This document shows positions 726 to 21,164 of a DNA stretch of 21,247 nucleotides, piece after piece. The position numbers and the translations under genes were made by a program. The stretch comes from Thermoplasmata archaeon (GTDB lineage: Archaea; Thermoplasmatota; SW-10-69-26; JACQPN01; JAJPHT01). A model generated the notes under the pieces. It was not told where the DNA came from. It saw only the letters and a list, made by a program, of their open reading frames with translations, and did not search any database. The DNA is taken from the NCBI GenBank assembly GCA_034667685.1, contig JAXDQU010000016.1:1-21247 (forward strand), read 5' to 3'. Within the stretch, counting starts at the first letter, position 1; each line of letters begins with the position of its first letter.

Positions 726-1592
726 CTAGCACGTCGCGTAGCTCGTCCCGAGCAGGGGCGGCAGCGTCGTGCCCGTCTCCGCGGGGCCGCCCGGCGCGCC
801 GGCCTGGTATGCGAACGCGCCGTCCGCGCCCTGCAGGCCTTGGAGGTACGAGAGCGGCGTCGCGCCACCCGGCGTGGTCCACGCGGCGAGGTCCTCGCCC
901 GACGCGAGGAGGCCCATCGCGGCCCAGGCCGTGCTCAGGTCGTTGCTCTTCGCGCCGCCCGCGAGGCCCCAGCCGCCGTCCGCGTTCTGGATGCCGCGCA
1001 GGTAGCTCTCCGCGCGCGCCACCGCGGGCCCCCGGCCGGCCACGTCGCCCGCCGCGAGCGCCATGAGCGCGGCGCCGGTGTCGTCGGGGTCCGCGGAGCC
1101 GGTCGTGCTCCAGCTCCAGCCGCCGCCGGGGCGCTCGGCCGCGAGGATGAACTGTCCCGCGAGCTGGAGGCGCGCGTCGCTGGCGGGGACGCCCGCGGCG
1201 CGCAGGGCGAGGATGCCCCAGTCGTCGTCGTTGATCGCAGTGGGGCTCCCGAACTGGCCGCCCACGAACCACGCCTGCACGACGAGCGCGTAGTCGACGC
1301 CGTGGAAGTCGTTCGCGTCGTAGCCCGCGCACGCGAGCGCGAGCGTCGAACGCTCCCACGATAGCACCGAGGTCGGCTCGGGCGGGTTCGCCATGAGGTA
1401 CGTCTCGACGCCCCATGCGGCCGGGTCCTCGTGGGCGGCGGCGAGGCCCATCAGCACCCAGTCGGTCGTGGCACGCGTGCCCCATCCGCCGTCGGCCTGC
1501 TGCTCCGCGCGCAGCGAGGCGAGGGCGGCGTTCGGGTCGGCGAGGACGGCGGGCGCAAGGAGGACGATCGCGAGCAGCAGGGCGCGGAGCAC
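726..1592 (-). CDS. Secreted prenyltransferase/squalene-oxidase-repeat (alpha/alpha barrel) protein, possibly a cobalamin-binding alpha domain
   Basis: Signal peptide MLRALLLAIVLLAPAVLA. QW-like repeats QQADGGWG, ERPGGGWS, QNADGGWG, QGADGAF. Helix motifs INDDDWGILAL, DPDDTGAALMAL, STAWAAMGL. CTTATCC box 29 nt upstream of the GTG. Confidence 0.8.
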   Translation of the reverse strand: MLRALLLAIVLLAPAVLADPNAALASLRAEQQADGGWGTRATTDWVLMGLAAAHEDPAAWGVETYLMANPPEPTSVLSWERSTLALACAGYDANDFHGVDYALVVQAWFVGGQFGSPTAINDDDWGILALRAAGVPASDARLQLAGQFILAAERPGGGWSWSTTGSADPDDTGAALMALAAGDVAGRGPAVARAESYLRGIQNADGGWGLAGGAKSNDLSTAWAAMGLLASGEDLAAWTTPGGATPLSYLQGLQGADGAFAYQAGAPGGPAETGTTLPPLLGTSYATC

Positions 1593-1684: not shown

Positions 1685-1712
1685 GCGTGGGGAGCGCTTG
1701 CGGGCGGCTCGC

Positions 1713-2156
1713 ATGATGCGAACCATCCTGATCGCGCTGCTGACGACCGTGCCGCTCGGCGCCGCGCTGCCTCCGCCCTTGGCCACCGTGCACGTGACGC
1801 TCCAGGTCGACGCGAGCGCCTACCCGCTGATCCCCGAGTCGAAGACCTGCGAGGTCGAGGTGCCCGCGGGCAGCGACGGCAAGGTCATGCTCACCGCCGC
1901 GACCGCGAGCGGCTGCATCGCCGGCTGGACCGCGACGTTCTCTCCGACCGTGGGCGCGTTCTACCTCGACGGCGTGGATGGCCGGCGCGCGGTGTGCGAC
2001 ACGCCGGTCTGGCTCGTCCACTGCACGTTCTGGTTCCTGAGCGCGAACGGCCAGCCCTCGGACGTGGGGATCGACGGCTGGCGCGCCGCCGAGGGCGACA
2101 CGTACGGCTTCACCTACGACCGCGAGTTCGCGGGGCTGCCTTCGCCTATGCCGTGA
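1713..2156 (+). CDS. Secreted DUF4430-like (transcobalamin beta-domain-like) protein
   Basis: Signal peptide; FYLDGVDG; and FWFLSANGQPSDVGIDGWRAAEGDTYGFTY, which fits the DUF4430-type pattern W-x4-NG-x4-VG...GD-x3-F-x-Y. Confidence 0.75.
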   Translation: MMRTILIALLTTVPLGAALPPPLATVHVTLQVDASAYPLIPESKTCEVEVPAGSDGKVMLTAATASGCIAGWTATFSPTVGAFYLDGVDGRRAVCDTPVWLVHCTFWFLSANGQPSDVGIDGWRAAEGDTYGFTYDREFAGLPSPMP

Positions 2157-2396: not shown

Positions 2397-2693
2397 CTAC
2401 GCCAGCATCGGATGGCAGAGCTCGGGGTCCCGATAGCACGGGTCGTTGAGGCATCCGCCGACGGTGTCCGCGACGTCGAAGCACGCGAGGTACGGGACCG
2501 GGCAGTCGCCGTCCATCTCCGTGCAGGTGATGGGCTGGGCGACGCACTCGGTGAGCGCCTCGAAGGACACGCAGGCGAGACCCGGGCAGCTGCTCTGCAC
2601 GGCCTGCACGCAGGAGCTGCCCGGGAACGCCGAAGCGACGGCGGGGACCGACGCGACGAGCAGGAGCGGGACGAGGAAGAGCGGGACGCGCAT
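2397..2693 (-). CDS. Secreted Cys-rich peptide C (10 Cys)
   Basis: Signal peptide ending VASA; C-x7-CPGxxC-x8-C module, second 4-Cys module, DPCYRDPELC tail; GAGGCG RBS-like site overlapping the upstream stop. Confidence 0.85.
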   Translation of the reverse strand: MRVPLFLVPLLLVASVPAVASAFPGSSCVQAVQSSCPGLACVSFEALTECVAQPITCTEMDGDCPVPYLACFDVADTVGGCLNDPCYRDPELCHPMLA

Positions 2694-2703
2694 GCTCGTC
2701 GCC

Positions 2704-3093
2704 TCACGCCTGCAGGTTGCACAGCTCGGGGTCGAGCAGGCACGGGTCGGGGATGCACGCCGTCTTGCCGTTCACGCCGACGCAGGCGATCCACGGGTAG
2801 GAGCAGCGGGTGGTGAACGACGTGCAGTCGGTCACGCTCGGCTTGCCCGCGCAGGTCCACTGGCCGGTGGCGTTGACGCACGCCGTGCCGGGGCAGCTGT
2901 TGTGGTCCTGCTGGACGCAGACGATCTGGCTGACGACGGGGCTCTCGCAGACGTACTTGGCCTCGATCCAGACGCAAACGAAGCCGGGGCACGAGCCGCC
3001 CTCGGCCGTGGTGCAGACGCCCATCGGGACGGAGGCGGAGGCGAGCGGGACGGCGGCGAGCGTGGCGAGGAGGGCGACGAGGAAGACGCGCAT
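2704..3093 (-). CDS. Secreted Cys-rich peptide B (14 Cys, three modules)
   Basis: ATG3093 preceded by GAGGTG; signal peptide MRVFLVALLATLAAVPLASA; paralogous to both neighbours. Confidence 0.85.
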   Translation of the reverse strand: MRVFLVALLATLAAVPLASASVPMGVCTTAEGGSCPGFVCVWIEAKYVCESPVVSQIVCVQQDHNSCPGTACVNATGQWTCAGKPSVTDCTSFTTRCSYPWIACVGVNGKTACIPDPCLLDPELCNLQA

Positions 3094-3103
3094 GTTCCCC
3101 ACC

Positions 3104-3424
3104 TCACGCCAGCGTCGGGTTGCACCACTCGGGGGCGTCGTAGCAGATGTCGGGGGCGCAGGCGCGCACGGCGCCATACCAGACGCAGGCGAGGTCGCCG
3201 GGGGGGCAGCCGCCCTTCAGCTCGGTGCAGTCGCCGTGCGGCGGGAGCGAGAGGATGGGCGTCTCGCAGATGTACTTGGCCTCGATCCAGACGCACACGG
3301 TGCCGGGGCAGTAGGCGTCGGTCGCGCGGGCGCAGACGCCCATCGGCACGGAGGCCGAGGCGGCGGGCGTCATCGCGACGAGGACGAGCGGGACGAGCAG
3401 GGTCATGAAAAGCTTGGAGGACAT
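3104..3424 (-). CDS. Secreted Cys-rich peptide A (10 Cys)
   Basis: Signal peptide ending AASA; predicted mature N-terminus SVPMGVC and CVWIEAKY shared with peptide B. Confidence 0.85.
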   Translation of the reverse strand: MSSKLFMTLLVPLVLVAMTPAASASVPMGVCARATDAYCPGTVCVWIEAKYICETPILSLPPHGDCTELKGGCPPGDLACVWYGAVRACAPDICYDAPEWCNPTLA

Positions 3425-3499
3425 GGGGGTGTGCCCGCGGCGCGGAGATTGCCGCGAGCACGAGAAAGATACCAGGGTGCAACCCGCAGGCTGCGCGGC

Positions 3500-4834
3500 T
3501 CAGAAGACCGCGCCGGTGAACGCGTCCACCTTGGTCACGCCCGTCGAGGTCGTGATCTCCCAGACCGGGCAGAGGATCATGCCGCGGTGCTGGAGGCCGC
3601 ACTCGTCGGGCTCCGGGACGATCTTCAGGTTGGCCATCACCGTGTTGCCGGCGATCTCCTTCTCGACCTGGAGCGTCTTGCCGAACGTCTTGGCCATGTG
3701 CCCCTTGATCTTGTCGTAGATGTCCACGGCCTGGAGCTTCTCGGCCTCCTTGCGCGCCTCGGCGGGGGCGGCGGGCTCCCACGCGAGCGCGTCCACGGTG
3801 CGCAGGTCGCCCGTGAGCGAGGAGATCAGGACGCTCCCCTTGCCCACGATGGGCGCGGGAAGCTCGGGGCGCTCGACGCGCACGTCGTAGTCGAACGCGA
3901 TGTTGGGGTAGAGCGCGAGCTTGGGCGTGCCCTGCTTGCCGCTCTTGGCGAGCGCGTCCTGCGCGGTGACGTTGATCTTCAGCACGCCCGAGCCGTTGGT
4001 GGGCGCCTCGGTCGCCGCAACGGCCTTCTTCTTGGGCGTCGTGATGATCTCGTACGCCTCCTCCTCGGCGTTCGCGACGGGCGTCGCGGCGCGCGTGGGC
4101 GTCGCGGCCGCCGGCGCCTCCTGTCCCTCGGGGATCAGGTTGCCCCACTGGTCGACGTGCCGGGAGGGGTGGCGGCCGCTGCGGACCTGGGCGATGCCCG
4201 CGTTCGACGTGCCGCCCACGGCGCCGCCCCACGCGTAGCCCAGCGAGCCGCCCTTGCCCTGGGCGATGCCGCCCTGCATGTCGATGGGCTGCTCCTTGTG
4301 CTTGTTGGGCATGAAGTACGCCGCGCCCGCGTTGCTCACGACGGAGGCGCTGGCGGCCTGCGCGACGAGGCTGGGGAACTTGGCGGTGGACTTGTTCGTG
4401 GCCTGGACGGCGGGCGTCGCCTGGAACGCGCTGGGCTCCTTGGGGAAGGCCGCGGGGCCGAGGCTGGGGCTCGGGCTGGCGCTAGGGCTGGGGCCGGGGA
4501 CGACCGCGCCGTGGACCATGGCCTCGCCCACCTCGAGCACGAGGCGGCTCTCGGCCCAGGCTTCGACGCCCTTGGCGGCGGCCAGCGCGTCCTTGGCGGC
4601 AGGCTCGACGCCCTTGGGCGCCACGAGGATGCCGTGGGTCGCGTGGACCTGCTCGCAGGCCTGGAGGAAGAGCTGCGCGTCGGGGAGGCTGACGGGGCCG
4701 TCGAGCTTCCACGCCGCCAGGAGCGTGTCGTCGCCCTTGCGCGCGAACAGGGCCTCCGCGTCGGCCCCCTGGATGGTGAATCCCTTGTGCTCCGCCACGC
4801 GGGCGAGAAGCTGATCCATCGTTTGCATGTGCAT
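3500..4834 (-). CDS. Protein with degenerate Mrr-like restriction-endonuclease domain, long disordered linker and C-terminal domain of unknown function
   Basis: N-terminal HGILVAPKGVEPAAKDALAAAKGVEAW resembles the Mrr_cat C-terminal half. C-terminal P-x-W...VDAFTG. Start could be 4834, 4828 or 4819. Confidence 0.7.
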   Translation of the reverse strand: MHMQTMDQLLARVAEHKGFTIQGADAEALFARKGDDTLLAAWKLDGPVSLPDAQLFLQACEQVHATHGILVAPKGVEPAAKDALAAAKGVEAWAESRLVLEVGEAMVHGAVVPGPSPSASPSPSLGPAAFPKEPSAFQATPAVQATNKSTAKFPSLVAQAASASVVSNAGAAYFMPNKHKEQPIDMQGGIAQGKGGSLGYAWGGAVGGTSNAGIAQVRSGRHPSRHVDQWGNLIPEGQEAPAAATPTRAATPVANAEEEAYEIITTPKKKAVAATEAPTNGSGVLKINVTAQDALAKSGKQGTPKLALYPNIAFDYDVRVERPELPAPIVGKGSVLISSLTGDLRTVDALAWEPAAPAEARKEAEKLQAVDIYDKIKGHMAKTFGKTLQVEKEIAGNTVMANLKIVPEPDECGLQHRGMILCPVWEITTSTGVTKVDAFTGAVF

Positions 4835-4970
4835 CCCTGCGAGACTCACGCTGGACGGGGTTCATAGCGTTTCGCAAAGCGATCTGGGCGGGTGTTGCCC
4901 ACCTTGGCGACCACCGAAGGGGCTTGAAGGCGCCCCGCCACCCCGGGGGCGGGAGTCAGGAGGCTTCAGC

Positions 4971-13614: not shown

Positions 13615-14352
13615 TCACGAAGCCCGCGTGGGCGCCCGCGCCGCGAGCTTCGCGGGGCGGAAGCGCAACCGGACCAAGGTGCGCAGGAAGGCGACGAACT
13701 CGGAGGGGCCGAGCTTCGACTTGCCCACGGTGCGGTTCTCGAAGGTGATGGGCACCTCCACGATACGCATGCCGGTGCGCCGCGCGAGATGGAGCGCCTC
13801 GACCTGGAAGGCGTAGCCGTCGCTCTGCACGGCCTGCACGACGCCAGCGGCCTCGCGGACGTAGGCGCGGTACCCGCTCGTGGTGTCGCCGACCTTGAGA
13901 CCCAGCGCCAGGCGCGCGAGCGTGTTGCCGGTGCCGCTGACGAGCCTGCGATACCAGTTCCAGCCCACGACGCGGCCCTGCGGCGCGTAGCGCGAGCCCA
14001 CCGCGACGTCGGCGCCGCTCTCGATCGCCTCGATCAGCGCCGGGAGATAGCGCGGGTCGTGCGAGAGGTCGGCGTCCATCTCGAAGATGATATCACCCTT
14101 CGCGGCGGCGAAGCCGTCGCGGTACGCGCTGCCCAGGCCGCTCTTGGCGGGGCGGCTCACGACGCGGATCGGGTGCGCGCTCGCCAGGTCGCGCGCCAGC
14201 TCGCCGGTGCCATCGGGGCTGGCGTCGTCGACGACGACGATCTCGTAGTCGATCGGCATGTGCTCGGCGATGGCCGCGACGAGGCGGGGAAGGTTCTGTC
14301 GCTCGTTGTAGGTCGGCACGACGACGCTCGCGAAGCGCGCCCGGCGGTCCAT
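13615..14352 (-). CDS. Polyprenol/dolichol-phosphate mannose synthase (GT2, DPM1-like)
   Basis: VVVPTYNE, VVDDASPDGT, GLGSAY, EMDADLSH, GSRY, DTTSGYRAY, GYAFQVE, EVPITFENR..GKSK. Confidence 0.92.
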   Translation of the reverse strand: MDRRARFASVVVPTYNERQNLPRLVAAIAEHMPIDYEIVVVDDASPDGTGELARDLASAHPIRVVSRPAKSGLGSAYRDGFAAAKGDIIFEMDADLSHDPRYLPALIEAIESGADVAVGSRYAPQGRVVGWNWYRRLVSGTGNTLARLALGLKVGDTTSGYRAYVREAAGVVQAVQSDGYAFQVEALHLARRTGMRIVEVPITFENRTVGKSKLGPSEFVAFLRTLVRLRFRPAKLAARAPTRAS

Positions 14353-14385
14353 GATGCCAGGGGTCCGCGGCGGATCGAAGGCGGC

Positions 14386-14446
14386 TCTGGTACGCGCGTG
14401 GAACCGAGCGAGCGATCGCCTCGCGAGGCGCCATCGCTGTACCAGA
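14386..14446. promoter_or_regulatory. Mirror-placed GTACCAGA motifs at divergent promoters
   Basis: GTACCAGA on minus (14393-14386) and plus (14439-14446), each ending 34 nt from its start codon; third copy at 16797-16804. Confidence 0.5.
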
Positions 14447-14479
14447 AACCACTCCAAGCGCGCGAAGGACGGTGCGCGC

Positions 14480-15508
14480 ATGGCCTCCTCCAGGCTCAAG
14501 GCCGCCCTGCTCCTCGCGCTGGGTGTGACGATCCTCGCCGCGATGGTCGTCTGGGTCGGCCCTGGCCGCGTGCTCCTCGCGCTGTCCCGCGCCTCGCCCG
14601 TCTACCTGGGGCTCGCGGTCCTCGCCTACGCCGCGTTCTTCGTGCTGCGCGGGTGGCGCTGGAAGACGCTCTTCTCGCAGAGCGCGCCCGACGTGCGCCT
14701 TTCCTCCACCACCGGGATCACGGCGGTGGGCTGGCTGGCGAACAGCATCGTCCCGCTCAAGGGCGGCGACGTGCTGCGCGCGGCGCTCCTGGCGAAGAAG
14801 GAGAAGGTGGGCCTCGGCCCCGCGGCGAGCACGGTCGCCCTGGAGCGCGTCCTCGACATGCTGGGCCTCGCGATCGTCGCGGCCATCGGCCTCTTCATGA
14901 TCCCCGACGACACGCGCGCCGCGCTCCCGCACGGCATCGCGCGCGCGCTGGAGATCGCGTGGATCCTGCCGATCCTCGGCCTCGCGTGCCTGGGCGTGCT
15001 CGTGCTGCTGCGCGAGCGCGTCGTGGCGCTCGCCTCGCGCACCATCGGCCAATGGGGCCGCTTCGGCGTGCGCGTCGTGGAGTACCTCGCGACCACGCTC
15101 GCGGGCCTCGCGGCGCTCGCGCGCAAGCCCAAGCTCATGCTCGCGCTCGTGCCGCAGAGCATCCTCGTGGGCGCGGCGCAGGCGGCGATCTTCGCCTTCC
15201 TCGTCGCGGCCTTCCTGCCCGGCACGCCGCTCGTCCTCGCGTTCGCCGGCGGCAGCCTCTTCCTGCTATCATTCGTGGTGAGCGTCACGCCGGGCAACGT
15301 GGGGACCTACGAGGCCGCGTTCGTCGCGGTCTTCGTCGCGCTCGGGCTCCCCAGCGACCTCGTGGTGCCCGCCGCGATCCTCACGCACCTGACCACGACC
15401 ATGATCGTCGCGGTGCTCGGCAGCCTCGGCATGCTCACGCTGGGCCTGGAGGGCAAGGCGCTCGCCTGGCGCCCGGCCAAGGCTCCCCTCGGAGGTGGCG
15501 CGCAGTGA
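14480..15508 (+). CDS. Lysylphosphatidylglycerol-synthase-TM / flippase-like membrane protein (UPF0104 type)
   Basis: Multiple TM helices; LRGWRW, NSIVPLKGGDVLR, LERVLD, TPGNVGTYE. Confidence 0.9.
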   Translation: MASSRLKAALLLALGVTILAAMVVWVGPGRVLLALSRASPVYLGLAVLAYAAFFVLRGWRWKTLFSQSAPDVRLSSTTGITAVGWLANSIVPLKGGDVLRAALLAKKEKVGLGPAASTVALERVLDMLGLAIVAAIGLFMIPDDTRAALPHGIARALEIAWILPILGLACLGVLVLLRERVVALASRTIGQWGRFGVRVVEYLATTLAGLAALARKPKLMLALVPQSILVGAAQAAIFAFLVAAFLPGTPLVLAFAGGSLFLLSFVVSVTPGNVGTYEAAFVAVFVALGLPSDLVVPAAILTHLTTTMIVAVLGSLGMLTLGLEGKALAWRPAKAPLGGGAQ

Positions 15509-20752: not shown

Positions 20753-21079
20753 CTAGAGCGTGAACTGGCTGATGCAGGCCAGGCAGATGGGCGCGCAGAT
20801 CGTGGCGAACCGGAGGTTCCCCACGTTGCCGCTGAAGCACTCGGCCGTCTGGGTCGACGAGGTCACGCACGCGCTGAGCACGCAGGGGGCGCCGCAGTGC
20901 GTCCCGGAGCTCGAGAGGCAGATGCTGGGCTCGCTGTGGCTGCCAGGGTCGAGGCTCAGGCAGGAGCCCGTGACGTTCGGATCGTAGAGGACGTTGCAGC
21001 TTCCCGCGGAAACCACGGGAACCGACAGCGCGAGGAGGGTGAACGCGACGATGGCGGGAAGGGTCAGCATGGGCCTCAT
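20753..21079 (-). CDS. Secreted Cys-rich small protein D (10 Cys)
   Basis: Signal peptide ending VVSA; 10 Cys in ~83-aa Ser/Thr-rich mature part; start 21079 or 21070. Confidence 0.7.
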   Translation of the reverse strand: MRPMLTLPAIVAFTLLALSVPVVSAGSCNVLYDPNVTGSCLSLDPGSHSEPSICLSSSGTHCGAPCVLSACVTSSTQTAECFSGNVGNLRFATICAPICLACISQFTL

Positions 21080-21164
21080 GTAACCAAGCCTCGCGGCGTC
21101 ACCCTCGTGGGCGACCAAATAGTTGCCTCGACGAATTCTATCATTTTATTCCACGTCTGGCCAG

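Follow-up and report, generated by a model that had tools for sequence, protein, structure and literature searches.

A family of small, putatively secreted proteins built from a shuffled four-cysteine module in a soil Thermoplasmata archaeon

Three tandem genes at positions 2397 to 3424 (minus strand) of a contig from a Thermoplasmata archaeon (GenBank assembly GCA_034667685.1, contig JAXDQU010000016.1) encode small cysteine (Cys)-rich proteins, here called P0001, P0002 and P0003, which belong to a rare and so far undescribed family built from a single homologous four-Cys repeat. The Cys frame of this repeat is nearly invariant in the family, while the loops change fast and modules move between genes. 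We propose that the proteins are soluble extracellular binding modules stabilised by disulfide bonds, a picture to which, taken as a whole, we assign a probability of roughly 0.6, its structural part being stronger than its functional part. The window, that is, the whole 21,247-nucleotide (nt) stretch analysed, is one contig (C16) of a 3.48-Mb genome of 71% GC in 124 contigs. The host had been described from the window as an apparent archaeon, and the rRNA locus of the genome agrees with this, as the archaeal models for the small-subunit (1498 bits) and large-subunit rRNA are the best of their clans there.

Three tandem genes and one repeated four-cysteine unit

The three proteins share a framework in which the unit C-x7-C-P-G-x2-C-x8-C, present in one, two and one copies in P0001, P0002 and P0003, respectively, is followed by C-x6-C-x6-C-x8/9-C and then by a tail of the form D-[PI]-C-x6-C. 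This spacing and the even Cys counts of 10, 14 and 10 are exactly those that the first-pass annotation of the window had read from the sequence, but its division of the chains into two module types did not survive. A profile seeded with nine C-terminal modules of this genome found 13 domains in 10 open reading frames (ORFs) and, after two more rounds, 18 domains in 11 of the 38,081 six-frame ORFs of the genome. Because the N-terminal units of all three proteins were matched by this profile of C-terminal modules, the two types are better described as one four-Cys repeat with an optional two-Cys tail. The repeat is present in two copies in P0001, three in P0002 and two in P0003, and the last copy carries the tail.

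In an alignment of 62 modules, taken from 35 proteins of the family, the four core positions hold a Cys in 55/55, 61/61 (two adjacent columns counted together), 61/62 and 61/61 cases, and the loops between them are variable across the relatives, as had been noticed in the window proteins. The tail Cys pair is found in about 35 of the 62 modules and elsewhere both Cys are absent together; being gained or lost as a pair, they fit a self-contained tail disulfide. Furthermore, the number of Cys after the signal peptide is even in each of the 31 proteins that could be scored, the other 4 of the 35 having been dropped since our pattern found no signal peptide in them. These data are consistent with the idea that the products are secreted, disulfide-bonded proteins. 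They had been called peptides, a term that we replace by small proteins, the mature products measuring roughly 76-109 amino acids (aa) after removal of the signal peptide.

Gene 1 (P0001, 3104-3424, with its TGA stop at 3104-3106) encodes 106 aa with 10 Cys, its parts being a signal peptide (3353-3424), a first four-Cys module (3266-3334) and a second module with the two-Cys tail (3122-3229). Gene 2 (P0002, 2704-3093, stop TGA at 2704-2706) encodes 129 aa from an ATG at 3093, with 14 Cys; its signal peptide (3034-3093) is followed by modules at 2947-3015 and 2851-2919 and by a third module with the tail at 2719-2826. Gene 3 (P0003, 2397-2693) encodes 98 aa with 10 Cys, distributed as signal peptide (2628-2693), first module (2544-2612) and second module with tail (2415-2525). 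The G+C content at third codon positions (GC3) of the three frames is 0.97, 0.98 and 0.95, against 0.59-0.79 for overlapping frames, and that of the flanking genes is 0.95-0.97. Moreover, all 34 Cys codons of the three genes are TGC. The GC3 values, together with frames and Cys that stay intact in the homologues, establish that the three ORFs are genuine genes.

The genes lie head to tail with spacers of exactly 10 nt, as had been pointed out. At the junction of genes 1 and 2 (3094-3106) the TGA is followed by the spacer 3094-3103, and a Shine-Dalgarno (SD)-like GAGGTG lies over the stop, 6 nt before the ATG; at the junction of genes 2 and 3 (2694-2706, spacer 2694-2703) a GAGGCGA lies likewise over the stop, 5 nt before the ATG. 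Both sites, already noticed as overlapping the upstream stops, fit the anti-SD of the 3' end of the genome's own 16S rRNA (...GGATCACCTCCT). No SD-like site was found upstream of the ATG of gene 1 in the 75-nt spacer (3425-3499, minus strand) that separates it from an Mrr_cat-like gene, and the ~18 nt directly before this ATG are also conserved at the syntenic position in a genome of the same genus (G003). From this operon-like layout, the three genes are probably co-transcribed as one transcript.

Each N-terminus carries one basic residue, a hydrophobic stretch of 14-18 residues and a small-x-small site (ASA in all three), that is, the n-region, h-region and cleavage site of Sec and signal peptidase I substrates, in agreement with the signal peptides proposed in the first-pass annotation. 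These features were assessed by eye and with a regular expression, so that they represent a feature check and not a prediction score. No twin arginine motif is present in the N-termini of the three proteins, and neither a lipobox Cys nor a C-terminal hydrophobic tail or anchor was found in them, the chains ending 4-5 residues past the last Cys. When 31 family proteins are aligned, one Pro and one Ala position in the signal-peptide region are shared by at least 90% of the rows. Because of the Sec-type features and the lack of lipobox and C-terminal tail, the most likely fate of these products, as far as their sequences tell, is export by Sec, cleavage by signal peptidase I and release as soluble proteins.

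The AlphaFold2 model of mature P0001, made with a 31-row alignment, is all-beta, with a predicted local distance difference test score (pLDDT) of 82.7 and a predicted template modelling score (pTM) of 0.46. The C-terminal module of P0001 alone (46 aa, 26-row alignment) reached a pLDDT of 89.5 and a pTM of 0.58; its strands cover residues 3-7, 17-23 and 26-31, and a short tail containing helical turns comes after them. The four-Cys unit is thus predicted to be a three-stranded beta-sheet, and since Cys 3 and Cys 4 of the unit lie opposite one another in the modelled hairpin, a cross-strand disulfide is possible. Neither model obtained a Foldseek row at E<=0.001 against the PDB, and none was obtained at this threshold among the viral predicted structures of BFVD, in searches where domains of ~40 residues score poorly; at such a small domain size the lack of a match is not proof of a new fold. 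Matches of P0002 in the ESM Atlas were discarded as chance, as the best feature score was 0.81 (MGF 110 of African swine fever virus), below our bar of 0.9, and the structure rows had template modelling (TM) scores of at most 0.35.

Range, module shuffling and fast change of the family

P0001, P0002 and P0003 have no match in Pfam or NCBIfam, the best rows reaching 12 bits (cut-off 25) and 8.3 bits (cut-off 80), and a profile sequence search of the PDB gave no hit at E<=10. Among 31 family members no Pfam family recurs at E<=1. Profiles for EGF, knottin, defensin and Kazal domains, for the carbohydrate-binding modules (CBM) CBM1, CBM14 and hevein, and for PSI gave nothing beyond isolated sub-threshold Pfam rows, these being CLIP_SPH_Scar (E 0.25), PSI (E 0.31) and DX (E 0.061), each in 1 of the 31 members. 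The only bacteriocin-type model that appeared among the family was CCPGW (NF047792), a putative bacteriocin family whose members resemble ours in being small, Cys-rich and C-P-G-containing; membership was rejected because a 25-residue alignment, taking in the signal peptide, scored 8.3 bits (E 2.3) where 80 are required.

A hidden Markov model of the four-Cys module, the search proposed in the first-pass annotation, places 11 family ORFs in this genome. The 11 include a second tandem trio on contig C40 (1637-2409, plus strand), with spacers of 9 and 11 nt. Using a 13-sequence profile of the mature proteins for all range searches, we found the family in 3 of 21 genomes of the class and, when no more than 13 candidates were scored in each genome, in 3 of a sample of 401 genomes of the phylum. 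Out of 1,835,955,588 representative proteins, 35 matched at E<=0.001 and 18 at E<=1e-10, P0001 and P0003 being among them, and all nine of the family clusters that we looked up are unnamed singletons. One of the 35, a protein of the tick Dermacentor andersoni (P0030, E 1.7e-4), has Pro/Thr-rich linkers and a repeated C-x6-C-x6-C-x8-C; its likeness is probably due to chance or convergence, and our family counts exclude it throughout. Five further relatives came from a word-indexed search, among them P0038, which is 82% identical to P0001 and keeps all 10 Cys. The two loci found in the metagenome scan encode proteins equal to P0005 and P0006, so they add no new members. Homologues conserving the Cys frame are present in other genomes and in metagenomes. 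Neither a strong Pfam match, nor a missing signal peptide, nor a lack of such homologues, which were the outcomes named beforehand as speaking against the initial proposal, has been encountered, and the structure modelling and Foldseek comparison suggested at the same time gave all-beta models and no significant PDB match. In full-text searches of the literature, assessed from abstracts, no report of such proteins in Thermoplasmatota or in other archaea turned up.

The largest relatives, of 288 and 305 aa, contain 32 and 28 Cys, respectively, distributed throughout the chain, and four module matches each. As these proteins are Cys-rich throughout and none of the 35 listed proteins exceeds 312 aa, no fusion to an enzyme is seen, in a search over the representative proteins that had no length limit.

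Modules do move between genes, and relatives differ in the number and order of their modules. P0004 (129 aa) has the three-module layout of P0002, yet its first module, with Cys excluded, shares 79% identity with module 1 of P0001 and only 47% with module 1 of P0002, whereas modules 2 and 3 correspond to their P0002 equivalents at 79% and 50%. In P0005 and P0011 two shared modules (70% and 74% identity) occur in permuted order. The syntenic locus of G003 has the same flanks as the window and a single gene of 151 aa, 14 Cys and three modules in place of the three genes found here, and in two other genomes of the genus an unrelated gene follows the Mrr-like gene and Cys-rich genes are lacking. 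When compared to G003, the Cys-rich genes have nonsynonymous divergence (dN) values of 0.34-0.61 and ratios of nonsynonymous to synonymous divergence (dN/dS) of 0.66-1.06, while four flanking genes have dN of 0.06-0.22 and dN/dS of 0.19-0.46. These are crude Nei-Gojobori estimates, obtained at a GC3 near 0.95 and an amino-acid identity of 40-57%, and since this GC3 compresses dS, only the contrast between the Cys-rich genes and their flanks is trustworthy.

Several other observations concern related or similar sequences. A narrowed-alignment search of genome contigs returned one locus, L048 (4001-4102), which encodes a family member identical to P0036; its GC content is 71-79%, and a 743-nt stretch is 81% identical to contig C68 of the genome studied here (G000). 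It was deposited as a Proteobacteria metagenome-assembled genome, a label that may be wrong. A rough census of our genome counted 34 ORFs for small secreted proteins in which Cys makes up at least 7% of the residues and is spaced in several unlike patterns, against a Cys background of 1.0% in 2,400 coding-like ORFs. In the window itself, a small secreted Cys-rich ORF at 20756-21145 (minus strand; 108 aa, 10 Cys) has a different pattern and is not matched by the family profile. Tandem small secreted Cys-rich genes are also found on contigs C63 (about 14200-15183, plus strand), where the Cys pattern differs, and C78 (about 51912-53403, minus strand), and some of the C78 module types are fused to family modules in the relatives P0012, P0019 and P0020.

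The surrounding DNA

Gene 1 is preceded by the conserved Mrr_cat-like gene (3500-4849), and gene 3 faces a convergent DUF4430 gene. The entire gap between gene 3 and the latter is occupied by a near-perfect hairpin of 240 nt (2157-2396), the arms of which are hexamer tandem repeats. Its DNA fold has an energy of -102.7 kcal/mol (z -15.9), with 0 of 200 shuffles as good, and it may serve as a two-way terminator. In the soil run X1, counting contigs at 80% likeness, the depth over the hairpin reaches ~1000, against ~9 at the adjoining genes; being up to ~100 times deeper than its neighbours, the hairpin belongs to a class of highly repeated elements. Under the same likeness, the stretch 3018-3119, which includes the part of gene 2 encoding the signal peptide (3034-3093), has a depth of 50-120 against ~9 nearby and attracts many unrelated soil contigs. 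Such signal-peptide sequences are probably common in the GC-rich genomes of these soils.

All metagenome runs containing the locus are labelled as soil metagenomes. The locus is unchanged in contigs of two of them (X1 and X2), which come from two different studies, and a third soil run yielded fragments of it, with a few differences.

Beyond the hairpin, the secreted DUF4430 gene (1698-2156, plus strand) is divergent from a secreted gene with squalene-hopene-cyclase repeats (726-1592, minus strand), a pairing that may recall the two domains of cobalamin-binding proteins. The syntenic locus of G003 has a DUF4430 counterpart, ~73-85% identical, with a similar secreted gene beside it.

With regard to possible partners, the 19 ORFs of the window that were scanned against Pfam (8 of them without any hit) include no radical SAM, YcaO or Lan enzyme, as had been stated before. 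Thus, the LanM/LanBC, radical SAM or YcaO gene beside the precursor that would be expected for ribosomally synthesised and post-translationally modified peptides is absent from these 19 ORFs, and no recurring neighbour was found either. When 60 coding-like ORFs taken from 17 family loci were all compared with one another, no partner gene recurred across paralogous loci, the matches being confined to syntenic flanks and to the family genes themselves.

Possible functions of the family

A fixed Cys scaffold combined with fast-changing loops and modules leads us to read these proteins, which are non-enzymatic by size, as non-enzymatic extracellular binding modules. According to this proposal, a compact tandem array, probably transcribed as one unit, would encode products that cross the membrane unfolded via Sec, are cleaved after Ala-x-Ala and are released as soluble, acidic proteins without an anchor. 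Outside the cell, each protein would fold into 2, 3 or 2 small modules, each a three-stranded antiparallel beta-sheet of about 25 residues in which the four Cys form two disulfides, and the tail of the last module (D-P-C-x6-C) would be clamped by a third one. Duplication, gene conversion and shuffling would rapidly change loops, module number and module order on the fixed scaffold, and the variable loops may recognise outside targets, most likely other organisms or soil polymers.

Some points weigh against this reading. The term binding module is reached by exclusion and analogy, and what we propose on export, disulfides, fold and co-transcription comes from sequence and models; in particular, the signal-peptide calls are based on features and not on a prediction score, and the disulfide pairing is a putative one. 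An exported disulfide-forming enzyme was not found in the genome among the two families searched, VKOR (0 hits) and Thioredoxin_4, whose single hit is a DsbA-like protein with a CPWC motif and no signal peptide. Finally, a dN/dS near 1 fits weak constraint as well as selection for change.

Small disulfide-rich proteins suggest other roles. Halocin C8 is an archaeal peptide with 10 Cys, and defensins, knottins, conotoxins, EGF-like repeats and fungal Cys-rich effectors combine a signal peptide with a fixed Cys framework and hypervariable loops, tandem gene duplication and modules in tandem. The family studied here resembles these eukaryotic scaffolds in all these respects by analogy, but it has other Cys spacings, no sequence or fold match to them and an archaeal host. 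The first-pass annotation had proposed archaeocins, signals or adhesion or surface peptides; its description of an undescribed, apparently secreted, disulfide-type family stands, unlike the two module types and the term peptides that went with it. The proteins could in fact be archaeocins, that is, Sec-exported, unmodified, disulfide-rich antimicrobials directed against competing archaea or bacteria, with the tandem paralogues forming a cocktail. They are small, apparently secreted, Cys-rich, tandemly duplicated and fast-changing, with variable loops on a scaffold, and restriction to a lineage suits a family of weapons. However, they are acidic, unlike most membrane-active peptides (net charges of -5, -4 and -9 for P0001, P0002 and P0003, negative in 29 of 31 scored relatives, with isoelectric points mostly of 4.1-4.8), no immunity, ABC-transporter or regulator gene recurs beside the family genes, and no halocin or bacteriocin model matches them, CCPGW being the best. 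The Pfam models for halocin C8 (mature and Hac8_like_N) are absent for the three proteins at E<=10 and for the 31 members at E<=1. According to bioRxiv 10.64898/2026.07.27.741052, mature halocin C8 measures 76 aa and is exported by the twin-arginine (Tat) pathway; it is cut from a precursor of 283 aa in which the immunity protein makes up the N-terminal part, and genes for regulators and ABC transporters lie on its flanks. The likeness is that of archaeal, exported, small, Cys-rich products of a heat-stable type, whereas our proteins have Sec-type signals without a twin arginine, precursors of 98-129 aa that consist of signal peptide and Cys modules, and neither such an immunity-bearing precursor nor such neighbours. 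The lack of similarity to halocin C8 noted at the outset therefore extends to sequence models, export signal, precursor and neighbours, and on these sequence features we regard an archaeocin role as possible but unlikely.

By analogy with the fungal CBM1 and hevein-type domains, to which the family modules may be comparable, the proteins might instead coat or bind cell-wall, plant or fungal polysaccharides, or build an extracellular matrix. The modelled module, a three-stranded sheet of roughly 25-40 residues, would suit such a role, as would the W or Y that directly follows Cys 3 in 21 of the 62 modules, the W/F-rich subfamilies (e.g., P0033 and P0039-P0042) and the arrangement of modules in tandem, up to four per protein. 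The absence of a match to any Pfam CBM family or fold, and of any relative fused to a glycoside hydrolase or other enzyme, makes such a role improbable in our view. The four Cys of each module could also bind metal, in a zinc-ribbon-like or metallothionein-like manner, for extracellular capture or buffering, and zinc-finger parts of TnpB, Nei and MutM are among the weak top Foldseek rows for the single module; these rows (E 5.7-9, probability 0.05-0.13) are far below significance, no C-x2-C knuckle of the zinc-ribbon kind is present in P0001, P0002 or P0003, Sec exports unfolded chains into an oxidising environment, and the pairwise gain and loss of the tail Cys is what a disulfide would produce, so that metal binding appears very improbable. 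A genome of 71% GC produces many long spurious ORFs, and together with the dN/dS near 1 this could point to chance ORFs or decaying pseudogenes. Such an origin is hardly credible for genes with a GC3 of 0.95-0.98, like that of their flanks, whose frames, signal peptides and every Cys are intact in the paralogues, in the positional counterpart of G003 and in the metagenome relatives, and whose locus is identical in soil runs of two different studies.

In animals, plants and fungi, small secreted disulfide-rich proteins play a central part in conflict and signalling, but to our knowledge they have hardly been described in archaea outside the halocins. More tentatively, and at odds that we consider low, this lineage of soil archaea could maintain a combinatorial library of disulfide-locked beta-hairpin modules that are duplicated, converted and reshuffled between genes and whose loops are selected to change, an archaeal counterpart of the arms races of conotoxins and defensins. 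They would then be Sec-dependent unmodified archaeocins, or decoys or neutralisers acting against viruses and the proteins of competitors, with a fold that has no solved relative.

Secreted disulfide-rich miniproteins are already known as a kind, and what is new here is a family whose module is well defined and demonstrably shuffled, and whose confident model obtained no fold match. In a soil archaeon without a wall, it thus offers a unit of about 25-40 residues together with direct evidence that such units are shuffled, and the module could serve as a compact and stable scaffold. If the proteins were only structural filler, they would remain a new family entry, and if they are weapons, decoys or polymer binders, they would give access to the interactions between uncultured soil archaea and the organisms around them.

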